64,000 bases of DNA from Syntrophaceae bacterium (GCA_025355345.1 JANXZU010000133.1:4075-68074), one strand, 5' to 3'. Shown: positions 36,372 through 44,462, counted from the stretch's first letter. Translations and numbers: made by a program. The notes: a model not told the origin generated them from the letters alone.

Positions 36372-36902
36372 TTAACCCTGTGTTACCTGAATGAAGTCCA
36401 ATTCAACAGGTGTGGGCCTGCCAAAAATACTTACGATGACCCTCAACTTACTTTTTTCCGGTCTTATCTCATCAATAACACCATCAAAGTTGGTAAAGGG
36501 TCCATCAATAATTTTTACATGATCGCCGACATCAAACTTAAATTTAGGTTTGGGCTTTAAAGTTCCTTCATCAATTCTCGCCTTTAAATGCTCAACGTCT
36601 TTGTCAGGTATTGGAGAAGGCTTATCCTTACTACCGATAAAACCAGTCACCTTAGGTGTATTTTTCACAATATGCCAAGTTTCATCGCTCATTTCCATAC
36701 GAACCAGAATATATCCAGGAAAAAATTTGCGTTTGGAAGTCTTCTTTTCCCCCGAAATCAGTTCGACAACATCTTCTTCAGGAATAAGAATGTCGGAAAA
36801 TACATCCTGAGCCCCTGCAAGATCAATTCTTTCCTGCAGACTCATTTTTACCTTATTCTCATATCCAGAGTAGGTATGAACAACGTACCATTTAAAAGCC
36901 AT
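36372..36902 (-). CDS. nusG: Transcription termination/antitermination factor NusG
   Basis: 'KWYVVHTYSGYENKV' (NGN domain) and a C-terminal KOW domain ('GDHVKIIDGPF') are present. Confidence 0.97.
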   Translation of the reverse strand: MAFKWYVVHTYSGYENKVKMSLQERIDLAGAQDVFSDILIPEEDVVELISGEKKTSKRKFFPGYILVRMEMSDETWHIVKNTPKVTGFIGSKDKPSPIPDKDVEHLKARIDEGTLKPKPKFKFDVGDHVKIIDGPFTNFDGVIDEIRPEKSKLRVIVSIFGRPTPVELDFIQVTQG

Positions 36903-36906
36903 TTTA

Positions 36907-37110
36907 TTAACCTAAAATAAATTTGACTAACTTAGCAAGAACATAATCAATTATGCCTAAAAATATAGCGATAATAAAAACTATAACTATTACAACCGTC
37001 GTGGAAGCCAATGTCTGCTTTGGAGTCGGCCAAGTAACTCTCTTTAGTTCAACCTTTGCCTCACTAAGAAAGCGAATTATTTTTTGCAATATTAATTTAA
37101 TTTTTTCCAT
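36907..37110 (-). CDS. secE: Preprotein translocase subunit SecE
   Basis: 'FLSEAKVELKRVTWPTPKQ' is followed by a single TM helix. The start is set at ATG 37110, because the longer track ORF runs into tRNA-Trp. Confidence 0.9.
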   Translation of the reverse strand: MEKIKLILQKIIRFLSEAKVELKRVTWPTPKQTLASTTVVIVIVFIIAIFLGIIDYVLAKLVKFILG

Positions 37111-37137
37111 ACTTTCAACCCTTCTTGCTAAAAATAC

Positions 37138-37214
37138 TGGCAGGCCAGGAGGGACTTGAACCCCCAGCATCCGGATTTGGAGTCCGGCGCTCTATCCATT
37201 AGAGCTACTGGCCT
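37138..37214 (-). tRNA. tRNA-Trp (anticodon CCA), CCA-3' encoded
   Basis: Hand-folded cloverleaf. The acceptor AGGCCAG pairs with CTGGCCT. The anticodon arm is CCGGA-CTCCAAA-TCCGG, and the T-arm GGTTCAAGTCC is present. Confidence 0.93.
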
Positions 37215-37227
37215 AGACCAATCTTAG

Positions 37228-37378
37228 CTACTTGGTTTCTCTATGTAATTTATGACCACGGCAGAACTTACAGTACTTTTTCATTTCCAAACGATTTTGC
37301 ATGGTGCGTTTATTTTTTGTTGTTGTGTAATTCCTTTGCTTGCATTCCGTACAAGCCAAAATAATATTATTCCTCATA
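37228..37378 (-). CDS. rpmG: 50S ribosomal protein L33 (Zn form), reading frame broken by one extra A in an A6 run (37313-37318)
   Basis: From ATG 37378 the frame reads [25 protein letters not shown], with the stop at 37310-37312. The +1 frame continues [31 protein letters not shown], with the stop at 37228-37230. Joined, they match L33 end to end. The locus is 151 nt rather than 150. Confidence 0.85.
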
Positions 37379-37392
37379 ACTCTCCCTTAACT

Positions 37393-37468
37393 GGAGCCCA
37401 CGACCAGGATTGAACTGGTGACCTCATCCTTACCAAGGATGTGCTCTACCAACTGAGCTACGTGGGCA
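37393..37468 (-). tRNA. tRNA-Thr (anticodon GGT)
   Basis: The acceptor GCCCACG pairs with CGTGGGC. The anticodon arm is CATCC-TTGGTAA-GGATG. GGTTCAATCC and an encoded CCA are present. Confidence 0.93.
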
Positions 37469-37521
37469 CGATCTATATTGAAAATATTTTACAAATCCAC
37501 CAAACAGATAACTAAAATTCC

Positions 37522-37597
37522 TGGAGCGGGAAACGGGATTCGAACCCGCGACCCTCAGCTTGGAAGGCTGACGCTCTAGCCCCTGAGCTACTCCCGC
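37522..37597 (-). tRNA. tRNA-Gly (anticodon TCC)
   Basis: The acceptor GCGGGAG pairs with TTCCCGC. The anticodon arm is TCAGC-CTTCCAA-GCTGA. GGTTCGAATCC and an encoded CCA are present. Confidence 0.93.
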
Positions 37598-37620
37598 TTA
37601 TTACTAATATCATAAAACCA

Positions 37621-37705
37621 TGGTGGAGGGGGGAGGGTTCGAACCTCCGTAGGCTTCGCCGGCAGATTTACAGTCTGCTCCCTTTGGCCGCTCGGGAACC
37701 CCTCC
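37621..37705 (-). tRNA. tRNA-Tyr (anticodon GTA), long variable arm
   Basis: The acceptor GGAGGGG pairs with CCCCTCC. The anticodon arm is GCAGA-CTGTAAA-TCTGC. The gene is 85 nt with an extra arm and an encoded CCA. Confidence 0.93.
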
Positions 37706-37723
37706 AGAGTTACATTACCAAAC

Positions 37724-37799
37724 TGGAGCTGACGATGGGACTCGAACCCGCAACCTGCTGATTACAAATCAGCTGCTCTACCGATTGAGCTACGCCAGC
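37724..37799 (-). tRNA. tRNA-Thr (anticodon TGT)
   Basis: The acceptor GCTGGCG pairs with CGTCAGC. The anticodon arm is CTGAT-TTTGTAA-ATCAG. GGTTCGAGTCC and an encoded CCA are present. Confidence 0.93.
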
Positions 37800-37887
37800 A
37801 AATCCCATGCTTAATTATCTTTTAACATCAAGCACTTATAATTTTAAGCGCACAATAAACACTACCGCACCCTCGTGCGAATTGCCG

Positions 37888-37916
37888 ACTCTAATTTTTA
37901 TGATTGTTTTTGTCAA
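37888..37916 (-). promoter_or_regulatory. Sigma-70-type promoter for the tRNA-rpmG-secE-nusG transcription unit
   Basis: The minus strand reads TTGACA (37916-37911), 17 nt, then TAGAGT (37893-37888), followed by a GC-rich discriminator. It lies about 85 nt upstream of the first tRNA. Confidence 0.5.
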
Positions 37917-37975
37917 GTAAATTTTTAATATTTTTACAAAATAATTTAGGTCACTGGTGAATAAACGAACAAAAG

Positions 37976-38524
37976 TTAATCTGCATCGCCAAAATAGTCG
38001 GCCGAAAAAATGTAAATTTCAGTTTCTTCATCCAACCAGGCCTGAGATGGAAGGCCGGCTTTACAGCAAGTCTCTTTTAAGAAAACTTCCCTATCCCAGC
38101 CATACTCAATGGCTACCTGCGGCAACAATAATCCGGAATTATAACCACGAATAATGTATAAACCGTGATTACCTACTTGAATTTCATGGATGTCTTGGAC
38201 ACGCTGCAAAGGGCTCAACACAGATATTTCATAAGTCAATCCATCAAGTTCCTCTGGCTTTAACAAAGGGAAACGCGGATCGTGGAATGCCGCAGCCAGC
38301 GCCATTTCCTGCACTGATTTCCAAAGCGGCTCAATCGCTTTAATATATCCAATGCAGCCGCGCAGCTGCCCACGTTTTTTCAAAGTAACAAAAGCGCCTC
38401 TTTTCTCTTTTAATGTTGCAGAATCTATTGTAAATTTTGGCAGATCTTTGTTGTTAACTTTAGCCGCAATTATTTTTTTTACTATATCAAGTAGAGTAGC
38501 TTTTTCCTTCTTGGTCAATTCCAT
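37976..38524 (-). CDS. AMMECR1 domain protein (AmmeMemoRadiSam system protein A-like)
   Basis: The hallmark 'RGAFVTLKKRGQLRGCIGYI' is present. The start is set at ATG 38524, with GGGGAG upstream. The track ORF extends to 38551. Confidence 0.85.
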   Translation of the reverse strand: MELTKKEKATLLDIVKKIIAAKVNNKDLPKFTIDSATLKEKRGAFVTLKKRGQLRGCIGYIKAIEPLWKSVQEMALAAAFHDPRFPLLKPEELDGLTYEISVLSPLQRVQDIHEIQVGNHGLYIIRGYNSGLLLPQVAIEYGWDREVFLKETCCKAGLPSQAWLDEETEIYIFSADYFGDAD

Positions 38525-38576
38525 TTTAGGCTCCCCTATGTTGTATGACATTAGATCAAATTAAGACATCTTCATT

Positions 38577-39398
38577 CTACCTGCAATATATTGCTGCTGC
38601 GTAACCGACAACTGAACTCTTATCGCCAGTTACATCCCCGGAATTAGCATATTTTAAAACTTGTGCGGAATTTGCTCCCATCATAGAAGCCACAAACACA
38701 GCGACCGCCATGGGTCCGCCACCACACGCCTCAGTAGTACCATTTCCTAAACTAGAAAGCAGACCTACCGCATCGATATCTTTTAAGTGCCGTAGCGCAA
38801 CACCATCTAATTTAGCGGCTTCTTTGTATCCGTGAAAATGAGATAAATCTGAGCTGCCGACAATTAGTATTTTCTTGCCGTGCGCGGAATCATATATCGC
38901 TTGGGCTACCTGACGGCAGGCACTCTCACCCTGATCTCCCATAACCAAAGGAACAAATGAAAAATTACCAAGCGCATACTGCAAGAAAGGAAGTTGTATT
39001 TCTATAGAATGTTCCTCCGTATGTGCAGCCGGAATGTCAGACACAAGACTACTGTTTTTATTGATCTTTTTGGCCAATTCTTCGGAAACAGGCACAATCC
39101 CCAACGGCGTTTCATAACCACCCTTACTAAAAATAGAAACACCAGAAAAGGCTGTTCGATGACTCGGACCTACAACAATAACGGCATCATATTTTTTCCC
39201 GTAGACACATTTGTAAGCATAAGCTGCAACCTGCCCGGAATAAACATACCCGGCATGCGGGGCAATAATAGCCACAACTTCACCTGATAACTCTTTATTG
39301 CGAACCAATTTGAAAAAATTCTCAATATCTTTTCTCAGGACAGAAGGATTTCCTGGATACCAGGAGCCGGCTATTACTGATTTTCTCAAAGCATCCAT
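38577..39398 (-). CDS. MEMO1-family protein (AmmeMemoRadiSam system protein B-like)
   Basis: 'AGSWYPGNP', 'IIAPHAGYVYSG', 'EEHSIEIQLPFLQ' and 'SSDLSHF' match the Memo/extradiol-dioxygenase-like fold family. Confidence 0.85.
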   Translation of the reverse strand: MDALRKSVIAGSWYPGNPSVLRKDIENFFKLVRNKELSGEVVAIIAPHAGYVYSGQVAAYAYKCVYGKKYDAVIVVGPSHRTAFSGVSIFSKGGYETPLGIVPVSEELAKKINKNSSLVSDIPAAHTEEHSIEIQLPFLQYALGNFSFVPLVMGDQGESACRQVAQAIYDSAHGKKILIVGSSDLSHFHGYKEAAKLDGVALRHLKDIDAVGLLSSLGNGTTEACGGGPMAVAVFVASMMGANSAQVLKYANSGDVTGDKSSVVGYAAAIYCR

Positions 39399-39421
39399 AA
39401 TCCATACCTAATTGTTCTATT

Positions 39422-41737
39422 CTACTTCACCTGCCAGATTGACCCTTGAGGCGTATCCAAAACATCGACACCTAGTTCACCAAGTTGAATCCTTAACAAA
39501 TCGGCTTCTTCCCAATTACAATTCTTTCTGGCGTCTTCCCTCTTAGCAATAAGTTCACTTATTTCGCCACGTGGTATTTGTGCCTTAAAATCCATGATAC
39601 CTAAAACTTCGTTTATATTTGCCAGTACCGCCAATATTTTACACGCATCATTTTTCAGAACCATCCCTTGTGCCAGGGATGGATTTATTTTACTCATAAA
39701 ATCAAAAATCGCAGAAAGCACACCTGCTATATTAAGATCGTCATCCAAAGAAGTTGTAAATTTATTTTTTAGATCGTAAATCAACTGATCAACTTCTGAC
39801 AGAGCATCTCCATCAATACCAATTGCACTAAGCCTGCTGATAAAAATATTAATCTTCTTAACCGTATTTTTTGCCATCATAAGGACACTATCGGAATAAT
39901 TGATTGGCTTCCGATAATGCATCGCCAACAGGAAAAAACGGATATCACTGCCGCTGTAACCGGCTTGCCTCAATTCAGCTAGCGGCAACGCATTATTCAA
40001 AGAGCGTGACATCTTCTTGCCGTCAACCAGGATCAGCTCAGCATTTATCCAGAAATTAGCTCCACTATGGCCGGAAATAGCTTTATTTATTGCTAAAATA
40101 TTCTCACCATGCGGAAATGTTTCATCAGCCCCACTTATATGAATGTCATAGGTTGACCCTAAATACTTATGAGAAATAGCCGAGCATTCCAAATGCCAAC
40201 CGGGCCTGACATTACCCCATTTAGTCTTATAGTAAATACCTCTTTTGAGTTCCCCCAGATTTGACCGCCGCAGCAGTGCAAAGTCCATCGGATGGTCCTT
40301 TTCATACTCGTCAAGATCAATTGTTTTACCGAGTCTTGTTTTCCCTAAATCGATGTTAGAAAGAATACCATAATCAGCTAATTTAGAAATGTCATAGTAA
40401 ACTGAATGTAATTTTTCGTATGCATAATTCTTATCGACTAATTTTTCAACAATCTTCAGCATATCTTCAATACTTTCAGATGCCTTAACATAAATATTAT
40501 CCTGAGAAACACTCAGAAATTGTGCATCATCCAAAAATATTTTTAAGTATTTGTTAGAATACTCTGCAATGTCCATTGACTCCCTTTCTGATCCCTTAAT
40601 AGATTTGTCAGAGAGGTCTACAATATCCAGGACGTGCTTTACTTTGTAACCTTTATACATTAAATAACGGCAAATTAAATCAGATACTACAAGGCGTCGG
40701 TAATTACCTAAATGAGGCACATCATGAACTGTAGGCCCACAGGTATGCATTCTCACTTCATCAGCGTTAATCGGTTTGAATAGATCTTTTTGGCGCTTAA
40801 GAATATTATAGAGATTGAAAGTAGAAAGATCTTCCTTAAAAGAAAATAATTCTGTGCTTAAATATCGCTCACCGCTGTCAGGAAAAATAACAACGATAAC
40901 GCCTTCTTCCAATTGCAGAGCTTTCTTGGCAGCAACAAACATAGCCGCACCGGAACTCATTCCTACAAGGATTCCTTCTTCACGGGCAAGCCTGCGGGAC
41001 ATTTCAAAAGCGTCTTCATCTAAAATATTTACCTTTTCGTCCAGCCTGGCTTTATCAAATATTCCCGGGCGATAGGCCTCCCTCATGTTCTTTAGTCCTT
41101 GAATCTTATGTTGCAGATAAGGCTCAACCCCGATAATTTTAATTTCCGGGTTTAGTTCCTTGAGCCGTTTCGAAATTCCCATAGCCGTACCTGTTGTACC
41201 CAAACTGGATACAACCATAGTGACAGTACCTCTCGTTTGCTCCCAGATTTCCTGCGCGGTGCCATAATAGTGCGCGGCAACATTGTCTTGACTATTGAAT
41301 TGATCCGTACCGAAATATTTATCCGGATTTTCGCGCAGCATTTTGTAGGCCACTTCAATTGCACCATCTGTGCCTTGAGCAGCCGGTGTGAAATTTAACT
41401 GGGCACCCATAGCCCGTAATATTTTTTTGCGTTCCTCGCTTGCCGCTTCCGACATAGTCAAGCATAGCTTATAGCCCTTGGCTGCGGCAATCATCGCTAA
41501 ACCGATACCTGTATTCCCGCTGGTTGCTTCTAAAATTGTTTTCGTTTTGGTTAATTCGCCTCTCTTTTCCGAATTTTCGATCATGAACAATGCAGTACGA
41601 TCCTTAATGGAACCGCCGGGGTTAGCACTTTCCAACTTAGCATAAATTCTTATTTTTTTATTGGGATTGAGATGGCAGATTTCTACCATTGGTGTGTTGC
41701 CAATGCCTTCGATAATACTCTTATATATTTTACTCAT
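39422..41737 (-). CDS. Fusion protein: N-terminal PLP-dependent cysteine synthase (CysK/CysM-like) plus C-terminal full-length class-I cysteinyl-tRNA synthetase-like enzyme
   Basis: The N-terminus has 'NPGGSIKDR', 'TSGNTGIGLA', 'GTTGTAMG' and 'PDSGERYLST'. From about aa 310 it has 'YNILKRQKDLFKP', 'CGPTVHDVPHLGN' (HIGH-like), 'RPGWHLECSA', 'KMSRS' (KMSKS-like) and 'LDDDLNIAGVL'. The C-terminus is 'REDARKNCNWEEADLLRIQLGELGVDVLDTPQGSIWQ'. Confidence 0.85.
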   Translation of the reverse strand: MSKIYKSIIEGIGNTPMVEICHLNPNKKIRIYAKLESANPGGSIKDRTALFMIENSEKRGELTKTKTILEATSGNTGIGLAMIAAAKGYKLCLTMSEAASEERKKILRAMGAQLNFTPAAQGTDGAIEVAYKMLRENPDKYFGTDQFNSQDNVAAHYYGTAQEIWEQTRGTVTMVVSSLGTTGTAMGISKRLKELNPEIKIIGVEPYLQHKIQGLKNMREAYRPGIFDKARLDEKVNILDEDAFEMSRRLAREEGILVGMSSGAAMFVAAKKALQLEEGVIVVIFPDSGERYLSTELFSFKEDLSTFNLYNILKRQKDLFKPINADEVRMHTCGPTVHDVPHLGNYRRLVVSDLICRYLMYKGYKVKHVLDIVDLSDKSIKGSERESMDIAEYSNKYLKIFLDDAQFLSVSQDNIYVKASESIEDMLKIVEKLVDKNYAYEKLHSVYYDISKLADYGILSNIDLGKTRLGKTIDLDEYEKDHPMDFALLRRSNLGELKRGIYYKTKWGNVRPGWHLECSAISHKYLGSTYDIHISGADETFPHGENILAINKAISGHSGANFWINAELILVDGKKMSRSLNNALPLAELRQAGYSGSDIRFFLLAMHYRKPINYSDSVLMMAKNTVKKINIFISRLSAIGIDGDALSEVDQLIYDLKNKFTTSLDDDLNIAGVLSAIFDFMSKINPSLAQGMVLKNDACKILAVLANINEVLGIMDFKAQIPRGEISELIAKREDARKNCNWEEADLLRIQLGELGVDVLDTPQGSIWQVK

Positions 41738-41746
41738 AACCTATTA

Positions 41747-42163
41747 TTAACTATCCATTTTAGGTATGGGAACTTTAATAAATTGGACACCTTCTTCTCT
41801 CAAGCTATCTTCCTCCTGAGGCGTAGTTGTCCCTTTGATATTGCGCTTTTCTTCATCTCCACTATGAATCTTTAGAGCAACTTCGGCAAATTTATTACCC
41901 ACATCCTCAAAATTATTTTCAATAAAATGATTCAGCATTTGCATGGCTTTTGCCGGAGAAAGTTCTTTTTCTGAAATATTTTCCGCTTTACGAGAATCTT
42001 TTCCAACAATCGTAATAGAAGAAGGAATTATTTCGACCTGCGAACTATTGCAAACAGGGCATGAAACAAGTCTCTGTGAATTTTGAGAAACCCACGCGCT
42101 CCGGTCTTTAAACCAACCCTCAAATTTATGCCCGTTTTCACATTTTATATCGTAAATAATCAC
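41747..42163 (-). CDS. DUF1178-family zinc-ribbon protein
   Basis: 'MIIYDIKCENGHKFEGWFKD...VSCPVCNS' matches the DUF1178 N-terminal pattern as I recall it. The gene ends with three consecutive stops (TAATAATAG) 3 nt before the fusion-gene ATG. Confidence 0.6.
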   Translation of the reverse strand: MIIYDIKCENGHKFEGWFKDRSAWVSQNSQRLVSCPVCNSSQVEIIPSSITIVGKDSRKAENISEKELSPAKAMQMLNHFIENNFEDVGNKFAEVALKIHSGDEEKRNIKGTTTPQEEDSLREEGVQFIKVPIPKMDS

Positions 42164-42254
42164 GTAAATAACACCTTTTGATTAACAAAAACTTATAAAC
42201 AAATAAAAAATAGTGGACATTTGGAAATAAATTATATAACGTCCGTGACCGTGT

Positions 42255-42331
42255 CGGGATGTGGCCCAGCTTGGTAGGGCACTGCGTTCGGGACGCAGGA
42301 GTCGCGCGTTCAAATCGCGCCATCCCGACCA
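42255..42331 (+). tRNA. tRNA-Pro (anticodon CGG)
   Basis: The acceptor CGGGATG pairs with CATCCCG. The anticodon arm is CTGCG-TTCGGGA-CGCAG. GTTCAAATC and an encoded CCA are present. Confidence 0.93.
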
Positions 42332-42362
42332 TTTTTTATTTCCAAAATCAGAACGTTTTTCA

Positions 42363-43574
42363 TCATCCGCTAACGACTGATGCGAGCTTAAATATAGGCA
42401 AATACATAGCGATAATCATACCACCAACGATTCCACCCAGGAAAACCATCATTACCGGTTCTAATAAAGCCGTCATGGCATCAACTGCAGAATCAACTTC
42501 ATCGTCGTAAAAGTCAGCAATTTTCGTGAGCATTGTATCAAGGGCACCGGTGGCCTCGCCAACTGCAATCATTTGCACGACCATTGCCGGGAATATTCCT
42601 GTTTCCGCCAGTGGCTCAGCTATCGTTCGTCCCTCACTGATACTTTGACGTGTTTTTAACAAAGCATCCTCGACAACTTTATTGCCTGAAGTTTTGCTGA
42701 CAATGTTTAAACCCTCAAGAATGGGCACGCCCGAACTCATCATTGTGGATAGAGTACGGGAAAATTTTGCTACTGCCACTTTTTTTAATAGTGTCCCAAA
42801 AACCGGCGCCCGAAGTGACAGAGAGTCAATGATCCACCGTCCTTTTTCTGTATTATAAAATCGATTGAACAAAAACCCAATCCCGAATACAATAGCACCG
42901 ATACCCCACCAATAACTTTGAGTAAACTCACTTGCTGCAATCAACATCATTGTCGGCGCGGGAAGTTGCCCACCCATGCCTTCAAACATCTTTTGAAATA
43001 CGGGGATAACCTTGAGCAGTATTAAAGTAACTACCGAAAACGAGATAACCAGAACAGCTATAGGATAGGTCATCGCGCTTTTAACCTTGGCTTTCAACTT
43101 CATTGCCTTTTCCATATAATTAGAAAGACGTCCTAATATAATATCCAACATTCCACCGGCTTCGCCGGCTGCAATTAAATTTACAAAAAGATCGTCAAAC
43201 ACCTTGGGATATTTTTTTAAAGCATCGGTCAAACTTGTGCCACCTTCAATATCTTCCTTGATAGACCGAATAATTTTGGCAAATACTTTATTTTCCTCCT
43301 GCTGGGACAAGAGGTCCAGGCACTGAATCAGGGGAAGACCGGCATTAATCATTGTGGAAAATATTCGGCAAAAAACAACAACATTTTTTTCTTTAATTTT
43401 CCCTTGCAAGAAAGGTAAGTATTCCAAAAGATCTTTGGGCTTTTTCCTGACCTCAATGGCCTTAAAGCCTTGCCTGCGCAATAAGCCGCGCACGATAAGT
43501 TCATCAACTGCTTCCATCTCCCCTTTTTTTACCTCGTCTTTTCTTGTTGTTCCTTCCCAAAGAAAAACTGGCAT
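42363..43574 (-). CDS. pilC: Type II secretion system protein F / type IV pilus platform protein PilC family
   Basis: The protein is 403 aa with two T2SSF repeats ('FSTMINAGLPLIQCL', 'LSTMMSSGVPILEGL') and the C-terminus 'GGIVGGMIIAMYLPIF'. Confidence 0.88.
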   Translation of the reverse strand: MPVFLWEGTTRKDEVKKGEMEAVDELIVRGLLRRQGFKAIEVRKKPKDLLEYLPFLQGKIKEKNVVVFCRIFSTMINAGLPLIQCLDLLSQQEENKVFAKIIRSIKEDIEGGTSLTDALKKYPKVFDDLFVNLIAAGEAGGMLDIILGRLSNYMEKAMKLKAKVKSAMTYPIAVLVISFSVVTLILLKVIPVFQKMFEGMGGQLPAPTMMLIAASEFTQSYWWGIGAIVFGIGFLFNRFYNTEKGRWIIDSLSLRAPVFGTLLKKVAVAKFSRTLSTMMSSGVPILEGLNIVSKTSGNKVVEDALLKTRQSISEGRTIAEPLAETGIFPAMVVQMIAVGEATGALDTMLTKIADFYDDEVDSAVDAMTALLEPVMMVFLGGIVGGMIIAMYLPIFKLASVVSG

Positions 43575-43709
43575 ATTTTATTAGATCCTTTCTTTAATGG
43601 TGAAATATTAACTTTAGTAACTCTTATATAATAAACTATCTTCAGTTTAAGTTCAACCCGTTAAATAGGTTTAAGAACAATCAACTTTTTGCTGAAAAAC
43701 ACCATTAGA

Positions 43710-44462
43710 TCATATTGGGACATTTTTCTTCATGCTGCGCTGGCAAAAAATTTCATATTGAATGATCCCTGCTGCCACAGCAACATTAAAGGAATCAAAA
43801 CTTCCCGACATGGGAATAGTCAGCAAAAAATCGCATTTCTTTTTAATTAGAGGACGAATGCCTTTTGCCTCTCCCCCTAATACTAAAACAACAGGACAAT
43901 TAAAATCCATCTGGCTTAAATTGGTTCCGCTGTGAGCTTCCGCACCAAAAATCCAAAAACCTTTATCTTTTAAATAATCGATTGTTTGCGATAAATTAGT
44001 TACGCGTGCGACAGGTAACTCACCGGCGCTTCCGGCGGATGCCTTAATAACTGCAGCCGTTACAGGAGCGGCGCGGTCTGTCGGGATGACAACACCGTTG
44101 GCACCTAAGCAATGTGCTGTACGTATTATTGATCCAAGATTCTGCGGATCCATAATGCTGTCAAGAATCAAAATCAGGTCAAAATTAAAAGATTTGTTGC
44201 GGTTTTTTATCAGAGCTTCTAAATCCGCATAGACAAAGTCCTGTCTCAAACCGATAACGCCTTGATGATCGAGTCTGCCTGCCAATTCATCCAAGCGTTG
44301 CCGCACGCAGAATTCAACAGGAATTTTTTTTTGCCGGGCAGTCTCAATTATTTCCGCAACAACAGAGCCGCCTCTCCCGGAAGCAACAATAATCTTCGTA
44401 AGTCCTGTTTCTTGTTGACCTAAGAGAACTTTGACAGGATTTATGCCGTAAATTGCCTCCAT
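43710..44462 (-). CDS. rlmB: SpoU/TrmH-family 23S rRNA (guanosine-2'-O)-methyltransferase, RlmB-like
   Basis: 'IYGINPVKVLL', 'DSIMDPQNLGSIIRTA', 'VLGGEAKGIR' and 'SFNVAVAAGI' are present. Confidence 0.8.
   Translation of the reverse strand: MEAIYGINPVKVLLGQQETGLTKIIVASGRGGSVVAEIIETARQKKIPVEFCVRQRLDELAGRLDHQGVIGLRQDFVYADLEALIKNRNKSFNFDLILILDSIMDPQNLGSIIRTAHCLGANGVVIPTDRAAPVTAAVIKASAGSAGELPVARVTNLSQTIDYLKDKGFWIFGAEAHSGTNLSQMDFNCPVVLVLGGEAKGIRPLIKKKCDFLLTIPMSGSFDSFNVAVAAGIIQYEIFCQRSMKKNVPI

Follow-up and report, generated by a model that had tools for sequence, protein, structure and literature searches.

In a stretch of 64,000 nucleotides from Syntrophaceae bacterium (hereafter, the window), four consecutive open reading frames (ORFs) on the minus strand, between positions 37976 and 42163, encode a DUF1178 protein, a fusion of a cysteine synthase to a cysteinyl-tRNA synthetase (CysK/M::CysRS), and members of the Memo and AMMECR1 families, i.e., proteins B and A of the AmmeMemoRadiSam system. 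We consider it likely that this is an inherited, lineage-specific housekeeping string with a canonical A/B pair whose radical S-adenosylmethionine (SAM) partner is unlinked, and that the juxtaposition of the pair with the fusion does not reflect shared chemistry. According to this explanation, the genome would be of the Smithellaceae type (Syntrophales, Desulfobacterota), and the four genes would form a probably co-transcribed string specific to that lineage which, besides carrying the DUF1178 zinc-ribbon protein, would provide a bifunctional enzyme with a CysK/M domain that makes cysteine and a CysRS domain that charges tRNA-Cys. Memo and AMMECR1 would be an ordinary unfused B/A pair acting, as elsewhere, with a dedicated radical SAM enzyme, which we infer to be encoded at an unlinked site. 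The juxtaposition would have arisen once, in the ancestor of the clade, and would have been inherited with approximately 20 kb of surrounding gene order, reflecting shared transcription at most.

Conservation of AMMECR1 and Memo extends from bacteria to humans, both have links to disease, and we know of no biochemical activity or substrate identified for them. Genomic surroundings that gave away their substrate would be valuable and, were the juxtaposition functional, this operon would expose the long-sought substrate class of both families. The context found in the window gives no such pointer, since it is the inherited arrangement of one clade and is contradicted, in both directions, by all the other lineages sampled.

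An earlier, model-made reading of the window (the original prediction) had proposed the domain assignments of the four genes as well as their tight packing, and both were confirmed, the former by Pfam and NCBIfam scores. The genes are separated, in the order given, by gaps of 9 nt, 23 nt and 52 nt, the last of which shrinks to 25 nt if AMMECR1 starts at 38551. The window has a GC content of about 41%, with almost all of its genes on the minus strand. The string is made up as follows:

41747-42163, minus strand: DUF1178 family protein, 138 aa with a GTG start, opening the string (PF06676, E=2e-40).
39422-41737, minus strand: CysK/M::CysRS fusion, full ORF, 771 aa.
40838-41737, minus strand: N-terminal cysteine synthase domain of the fusion (CysK/CysM-type, dependent on pyridoxal phosphate, PLP), residues ~1-300 (PALP at 10-287, E=2e-70).
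39422-40823, minus strand: C-terminal cysteinyl-tRNA synthetase domain of the fusion, residues ~305-771 (tRNA-synt_1e at 320-623, E=4e-78; DALR_2; CysS_C).
38577-39398, minus strand: Memo family, AmmeMemoRadiSam system protein B, 273 aa (PF01875, E=1e-62; TIGR04336, E=1e-86).
37976-38524, minus strand: AMMECR1 family, AmmeMemoRadiSam system protein A, 182 aa (PF01871, E=4e-56; TIGR04335, 186.8 bits).

The distribution of this arrangement was followed in two surveys. GTDB species-representative genomes were scanned with the Memo protein of the window, which yielded 31 loci, and JGI metagenome contigs were searched with an alignment of six AMMECR1 sequences, from which the best 80 of more than 586 matches were taken, a selection biased to relatives. 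ORFs were called in all loci and labelled with the proteins of the window and a radical SAM profile; 84 loci carried both AMMECR1 and Memo (A+B loci). The outcome of this neighbourhood count, which had been proposed along with the original prediction, was divided: the fusion lay directly upstream of Memo in 15 of the 84 loci (five GTDB species representatives and ten metagenome contigs), but all 15 belonged to one Smithellaceae-type clade, and among the 69 loci outside it no CysK, CysRS or DUF1178 neighbour was found within the fetched flanks, while a radical SAM gene adjoined the pair in 18. The adjacency is thus not restricted to a single genome; it was such a restriction, together with a radical SAM partner lying elsewhere beside a second A/B pair, that the original prediction had named as refuting its proposal. 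It was seen in every Smithellaceae-type locus with enough sequence and on further public contigs, including an NCBI contig of a metagenome-assembled genome (MAG) with an identical Memo gene and the same gene order. In most clade members, the gap between the fusion and Memo was at most 23 nt. The most divergent of them, L104, has an AMMECR1 53% and a fusion 59% identical to those of the window, and a GC content of 50%, compared with ~41%.

When Memo domains were placed in a neighbour-joining tree, every fusion-adjacent locus fell into a single clade, the sole other member of which (L060) is a 2-kb contig too short to judge. This monophyly indicates that the adjacency with the fusion has a single origin. 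Furthermore, the shared gene order of the clade, kept wherever a locus had enough flank except in L003-L005, extends well beyond the string: a PfkB-family gene, a DUF4416 gene, yicC, gmk, rpoZ, pyrF, spoU, pilC and tRNA-Pro precede the four genes, and tRNAs, secE, nusG, rplK and rplA follow them. This flanking synteny of ~20 kb was complete in L009, L043, L047, L049, L050 and L104, and the four-gene block is therefore conserved no better than its functionally unrelated neighbours. Similarly, when the fusion was followed outside the clade, neither Memo nor AMMECR1 nor DUF1178 was found near it in any of five loci from other Desulfobacterota, three of which showed a surE-HD phosphohydrolase-tmk-fusion string instead. 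Given the single origin, the equally conserved flanks and the lack of support outside the clade in either direction, the adjacency carries no weight as functional evidence.

A number of points weigh against the inherited-string explanation. The surveyed loci lack phylogenetic independence and over-represent relatives of the query, and the Memo tree carries no support values. In L003-L005, the sole exception to the flanking synteny, other DNA follows AMMECR1 in place of the usual downstream genes and the four-gene block survives; this survival, together with the tight spacing of fusion and Memo kept over considerable divergence, would fit selection for co-expression. A shared transcript for the four genes, plausible in view of their tight same-strand packing, is itself a prediction, though a probable one. 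Finally, the 64-kb window is devoid of radical SAM genes, and none of the best 120 matches (at least 62% identity) to the radical SAM enzyme of the outgroup locus L098 is named Smithella.

Some of these observations would also suit the view, advanced in the original prediction from the context alone, that AMMECR1 and Memo have a cysteine- or tRNA-linked role. In this lineage they might then act, for example, on Cys-tRNA, tRNA-Cys or a cysteine-derived metabolite of the fusion, and the operon would reveal their substrate class. What residual case it has comes from the tight spacing, with all genes on one strand and gaps of 9, 23 and 52 nt, from the retention of the arrangement down to 59% identity of the fusion, and from the survival of the block across the one downstream rearrangement of L003-L005. 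In addition, tRNA genes flank the unit, and genome contexts collected by Burroughs and coworkers in 2019 reportedly link Memo and AMMECR1 to nucleotide-base or isoprenoid modification. The single origin in the Memo tree, the equal conservation of unrelated flanking genes and the two null counts outside the clade (none of 69 A+B loci next to CysK or CysRS; none of 5 fusion loci next to A/B) all speak against this view, as does a Memo sequence unchanged with respect to radical-SAM-linked homologues, and we give it little credence. There is only a slim chance, in our estimation, that the single, long-retained juxtaposition is functional in the specific sense that Memo and AMMECR1 act on tRNA-Cys, Cys-tRNA or a cysteine-derived product of the fusion, possibly helped by DUF1178.

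The proteins themselves are in line with the inherited-string explanation. Memo scored 290.2 bits against TIGR04336 (cut-off 26), and AMMECR1 reached its 186.8 bits against a TIGR04335 cut-off of 99. When compared with 21 Memo domains encoded next to a radical SAM gene, the Memo of the window retained every one of the 43 positions showing 90% conservation or more among them, without a single departure; the kept residues include H48, H80, D184, H187 and C225 (His/His/Asp/His/Cys). This leaves the suggestion that the context hints at a special role of Memo without backing from its conserved positions. In AMMECR1, the LRGCIG and LLPQV motifs were present, as were all columns invariant in 12 homologues, radical-SAM-linked ones included. 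Nothing relevant to the combination of Smithella and AMMECR1 was found in the searchable literature.

With regard to the radical SAM partner, no CxxxCxxC motif was detected in window ORFs of at least 100 aa, and a profile of five AmmeMemoRadiSam radical SAM enzymes gave no match to the 64-kb window at E<=10, which upholds the earlier remark that A and B stand here without an adjacent radical SAM gene. None lay within 10 kb in the 15 clade loci either. Such an absence is not unusual: outside the clade, it was the commoner state among A+B loci flanked by 5 kb or more on each side, 10 of 16 being without and 6 with an adjacent radical SAM gene. Among the 69 loci outside the clade, adjacency also differed with the architecture of the pair, being found in 17 of 50 loci with a fused Memo::AMMECR1 compared to 1 of 19 with separate A and B genes. 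Based on these observations, we infer that the radical SAM partner of the A/B pair of the window is probably encoded elsewhere.

A lone gene of the AmmeMemoRadiSam radical SAM type, with neither Memo nor AMMECR1 within 10 kb, was observed in L128 (10001-11158) between ppa and a multihaem cytochrome gene; its product is 64% identical to that of L098. The latter locus is the closest outgroup with a radical SAM gene, which it carries along with a 112-aa zinc-ribbon gene and with Memo and AMMECR1 as separate genes. The names among the best 120 matches to its radical SAM enzyme were Deltaproteobacteria, Thermodesulfobacteriota and Syntrophaceae bacterium, and most matches were without an organism name. 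The contexts of these matches lie in a different syntenic region, with the order purD-purE...ResB-CcsA-DUF502-Memo::AMMECR1-Zn ribbon-radical SAM.

These matches bear on a second possibility, namely loss of the radical SAM partner from the clade, with an A/B pair that works without one, as in eukaryotes, where no dedicated enzyme of this kind is known. This would account for the lack of a radical SAM gene both in the 64-kb window and within 10 kb in the 15 clade loci, and also for the contrast between the 120 best radical SAM matches, none of which bears a Smithella name, and the organism-named matches to the fusion, 12 of 17 of which are Smithella or Smithellaceae. However, those 120 matches stop at 62% identity and are mostly nameless, and at best they speak weakly for the lack of a close homologue of the L098 enzyme in the clade. 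Unlinked radical SAM genes are, moreover, common (in the survey and in L128), Memo and AMMECR1 retain every residue conserved in radical-SAM-linked homologues, and the TIGR04335 and TIGR04336 families were built on co-occurrence with TIGR04337. Loss of the partner therefore appears unlikely to us, and a partner at an unlinked site remains the preferred reading.

A conserved gene for a 112-aa Zn_ribbon_8 (FmdB-type) protein was repeatedly observed to separate Memo(::)AMMECR1 from the radical SAM gene, the start of which is overlapped by its end by 4 nt (L098:9907-10245, L122:9666-10004, L123:6751-7089, L126:9666-10004 and L127:9666-10004; also in L085 and L088). This protein may be an unrecognised fourth component of the system in that lineage, and the recurrence of its gene is possibly one of the more useful by-products of the analysis. 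Were the juxtaposition in the clade functional, the position of this different zinc-ribbon gene in a related lineage might point to small zinc-ribbon proteins as a recurring component. DUF1178 was considered as a homologue of this protein (L098, L122, L123 and L126) and was rejected as evidence for a shared component: BLASTP gave E=0.009 over the ribbon only, and hhalign a probability of 24% over 50 columns. Separately, the metagenome contig L072 (7598-11157) showed two tandem A/B sets: directly after a fused Memo::AMMECR1 come Memo and AMMECR1 as separate genes, and after these a radical SAM gene.

The fusion shows, as judged from its motifs and alignments, the features expected of a working housekeeping enzyme: a PLP-lysine motif, the HLGN and KMSRS signatures, an anticodon-binding domain and end-to-end alignment to CysRS and CysM proteins of solved structure. 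Its cysteine synthase domain scored 357.6 bits against TIGR01136 (cysKM, cut-off 344.15) and stayed below the cut-offs of both equivalogs, with 355.1 against 394.2 for CysM (TIGR01138) and 313.4 against 350.95 for CysK (TIGR01139); it was therefore assigned as CysK/M-type without a subtype. The PLP-lysine motif GGSIKDR is found in the window and in 119 of 120 close homologues, and TSGNTG is also present in the window. The CysRS domain reached 355.8 bits against TIGR00435 (cysS, cut-off 340) and contains CGPT, HLGN (HIGH), GWHLEC, FPH and KMSRS (KMSKS), as well as DALR_2 and CysS_C.

Its zinc site departs from that of E. coli CysRS, the ligands of which are C28, C209, H234 and E238 in the 1LI5 structure. 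The equivalents of C28 (in CGPT), C209 (in GWHLEC) and H234 (in FPH) are kept, but the full set of four is not present: in the alignment to 1LI5, the E238 position is Ile, and that of H235 is Gly. The E. coli segment FPHHENE, which outgroup fusions share, thus reads FPHGENI in the window (FPHGENILAI, fusion residues ~556-565, window ~40040-40070, minus strand) and FPHCEN[IV] in 117 of 120 close homologues. As E238 is a zinc ligand in E. coli, the zinc site appears to have been remodelled in the clade, and the Cys further lost in the subgroup of the window.

Close homologues of the fusion comprise at least 120 cluster representatives with 73-100% identity and lengths of 755-783 aa (two, slightly truncated, at 755-756, the others at 770-783); those with an organism name are called Smithella sp., Smithellaceae, Syntrophaceae or Deltaproteobacteria bacterium. 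The family as a whole spans Desulfobacterota, including Smithellaceae, Desulfobacterales and Thermodesulfobacteriota MAGs (P0001-P0120, P0121-P0128 and P0271-P0385), and forms about seven full-length clusters at 50% clustering. HIGH, KMSKS and the zinc cysteines are lost in P0125, P0127 and P0128, and partly in P0122; P0125 is from Desulfovibrio ferrophilus and is annotated only as a cysteine synthase. No description of a CysK-CysRS fusion was found in the searchable literature, and this family, with its altered zinc-site residues and its subfamilies with degenerate synthetase motifs, is possibly a further by-product of greater use. In the Desulfobacterales-type loci L119 (8307-9335), L120 (8293-9285) and L121 (8336-9064), an ORF without a Pfam match directly follows the fusion; it measures 242-342 aa overall, and 330-342 aa in L119 and L120. 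Genes for surE, an HD-domain protein and tmk precede the fusion in L038, L120 and L121, and not in L119.

The same properties bear on the proposal, also made in the original prediction, of a variant system whose chemistry comes from the fusion, which would then take the place of the radical SAM enzyme for AMMECR1 and Memo. Adjacency and the lack of a nearby radical SAM gene would fit it, and nothing else does. The fusion is widespread in Desulfobacterota, where it normally stands without A/B (0 of 5 loci outside the clade), it keeps the CysK PLP motif together with the HIGH, KMSKS and anticodon-binding features of CysRS, and it is the sole CysRS in the 64-kb window. Moreover, PLP-dependent beta-replacement and aminoacylation are established enzymology that shares nothing with radical SAM chemistry. 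We regard such a replacement as highly implausible, in contrast to a housekeeping fusion inherited next to a canonical A/B pair.

As for the DUF1178 protein, it matched PF06676 with 138.9 bits (gathering threshold 31.6), residues 1-135 covering profile positions 1-146 of 147. It combines an N-terminal FmdB-like zinc ribbon (C8...H12...C35-P-x-C38) with a conserved C-terminal region, and its match to Zn_ribbon_8 was weak (E=3e-4). DUF1178 was found upstream of the fusion in all ten clade loci having upstream flank. A search for DUF1178 in the searchable literature returned nothing relevant.

Regarding the start of AMMECR1, the in-frame ATG at 38551 would give a protein of 191 aa and that at 38524 one of 182 aa. 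The latter is most likely the true start, because it is preceded by GGGGAG (a Shine-Dalgarno sequence) and because gene calls of 182 aa exist for homologues as well as for a public contig of identical sequence. A sequence scan revealed no intrinsic-terminator-like site in the three junctions, and promoter-like matches inside the genes were weak (9-10 of 12 positions). Over 37000-43800, a consensus scan returned 24 promoter-like matches, compared with an expected 15.4 +/- 4.0. An Rfam scan of 36800-43800 detected tRNAs only, with no leader and no riboswitch. A tRNA-Pro gene of the opposite strand delimits the unit upstream, a tRNA cluster does so downstream, and the following features surround it:

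42255-42331, plus strand: tRNA-Pro (CGG), between pilC and DUF1178 (ARAGORN; Rfam tRNA, 62 bits).
42213-42242, no strand assigned: AT-rich block of 30 nt, minus-strand sequence ACGTTATATAATTTATTTCCAAATGTCCAC, kept in nine clade members (alignment of upstream regions).
37888-37916, minus strand: promoter-like TTGACA-17-TAGAGT, 10 of 12 positions (consensus scan), in the interval from the stop of AMMECR1 to the tRNA-Thr/Tyr/Gly/Thr cluster.
37138-37799: downstream tRNA cluster, tRNA-Thr/Tyr/Gly/Thr...Trp (ARAGORN), followed by secE-nusG-rplKA.

The promoter-like site at 37888-37916 is probably a tRNA promoter that marks the downstream boundary of the unit. In the spacer upstream of DUF1178, the block at 42213-42242 is the sole non-coding element conserved in the nine clade members, and it could be a divergent promoter region serving tRNA-Pro, the four-gene string or both. 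This block, next to tRNA-Pro, contains TATATAAT, while the remaining spacer is not conserved; L043 and L050 carry an insertion of ~100 nt between the block and DUF1178.

When compared with known systems, the string resembles the AmmeMemoRadiSam system in having proteins A and B, both above their cut-offs, adjacent and with conserved residues retained, and in the order of Memo followed by AMMECR1, which is the usual one and that of fused Memo::AMMECR1 proteins. It differs in that the radical SAM gene of related systems usually lies beside a fused Memo::AMMECR1, whereas A and B are separate genes here, and in the lack of a radical SAM gene over 38 kb on one side and 22 kb on the other. To our knowledge, eukaryotes have AMMECR1 and MEMO1 without a dedicated radical SAM enzyme. 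The pair of the window is similar to theirs in having no obvious partner of this kind nearby and in its conserved Memo metal-site residues; the eukaryotic genes are unlinked, whereas those of the window stand 52 nt apart in a bacterial string. Metal binding by MEMO1 is dealt with in PMC11081632.

DUF1178 proteins of Alphaproteobacteria belong to the same Pfam family as that of the window, with 29-36% identity over the full length, but their gene follows a comF-grxC-carbon-nitrogen hydrolase string, whereas that of the window precedes the CysK::CysRS fusion. In L124 (3147-4429) and L125 (3180-4432), this string reads comF, grxC (glutaredoxin 3), carbon-nitrogen hydrolase and DUF1178, the last overlapping the hydrolase gene by 4 nt; a thiol-related enzyme is common to both contexts.

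Finally, the CysRS half of the fusion can be aligned over its full length with E. coli CysRS (PDB 1LI5/1U0B; 1LI5, E=1e-76) and with 8QHP (9e-93), and so can the N-terminal half with CysM/CysK O-acetylserine sulfhydrylases such as 2BHS and 2V03 (~1e-70). These are stand-alone enzymes, whereas the window has both activities' domains in one chain of 771 aa. In concept, the fusion recalls SepRS/SepCysS, which couples cysteine formation to tRNA-Cys charging (PMC5424206). The two are not homologous and, in contrast to that system, the fusion presumably makes free cysteine through its CysK/M domain, which its class I CysRS would then ligate to the tRNA.

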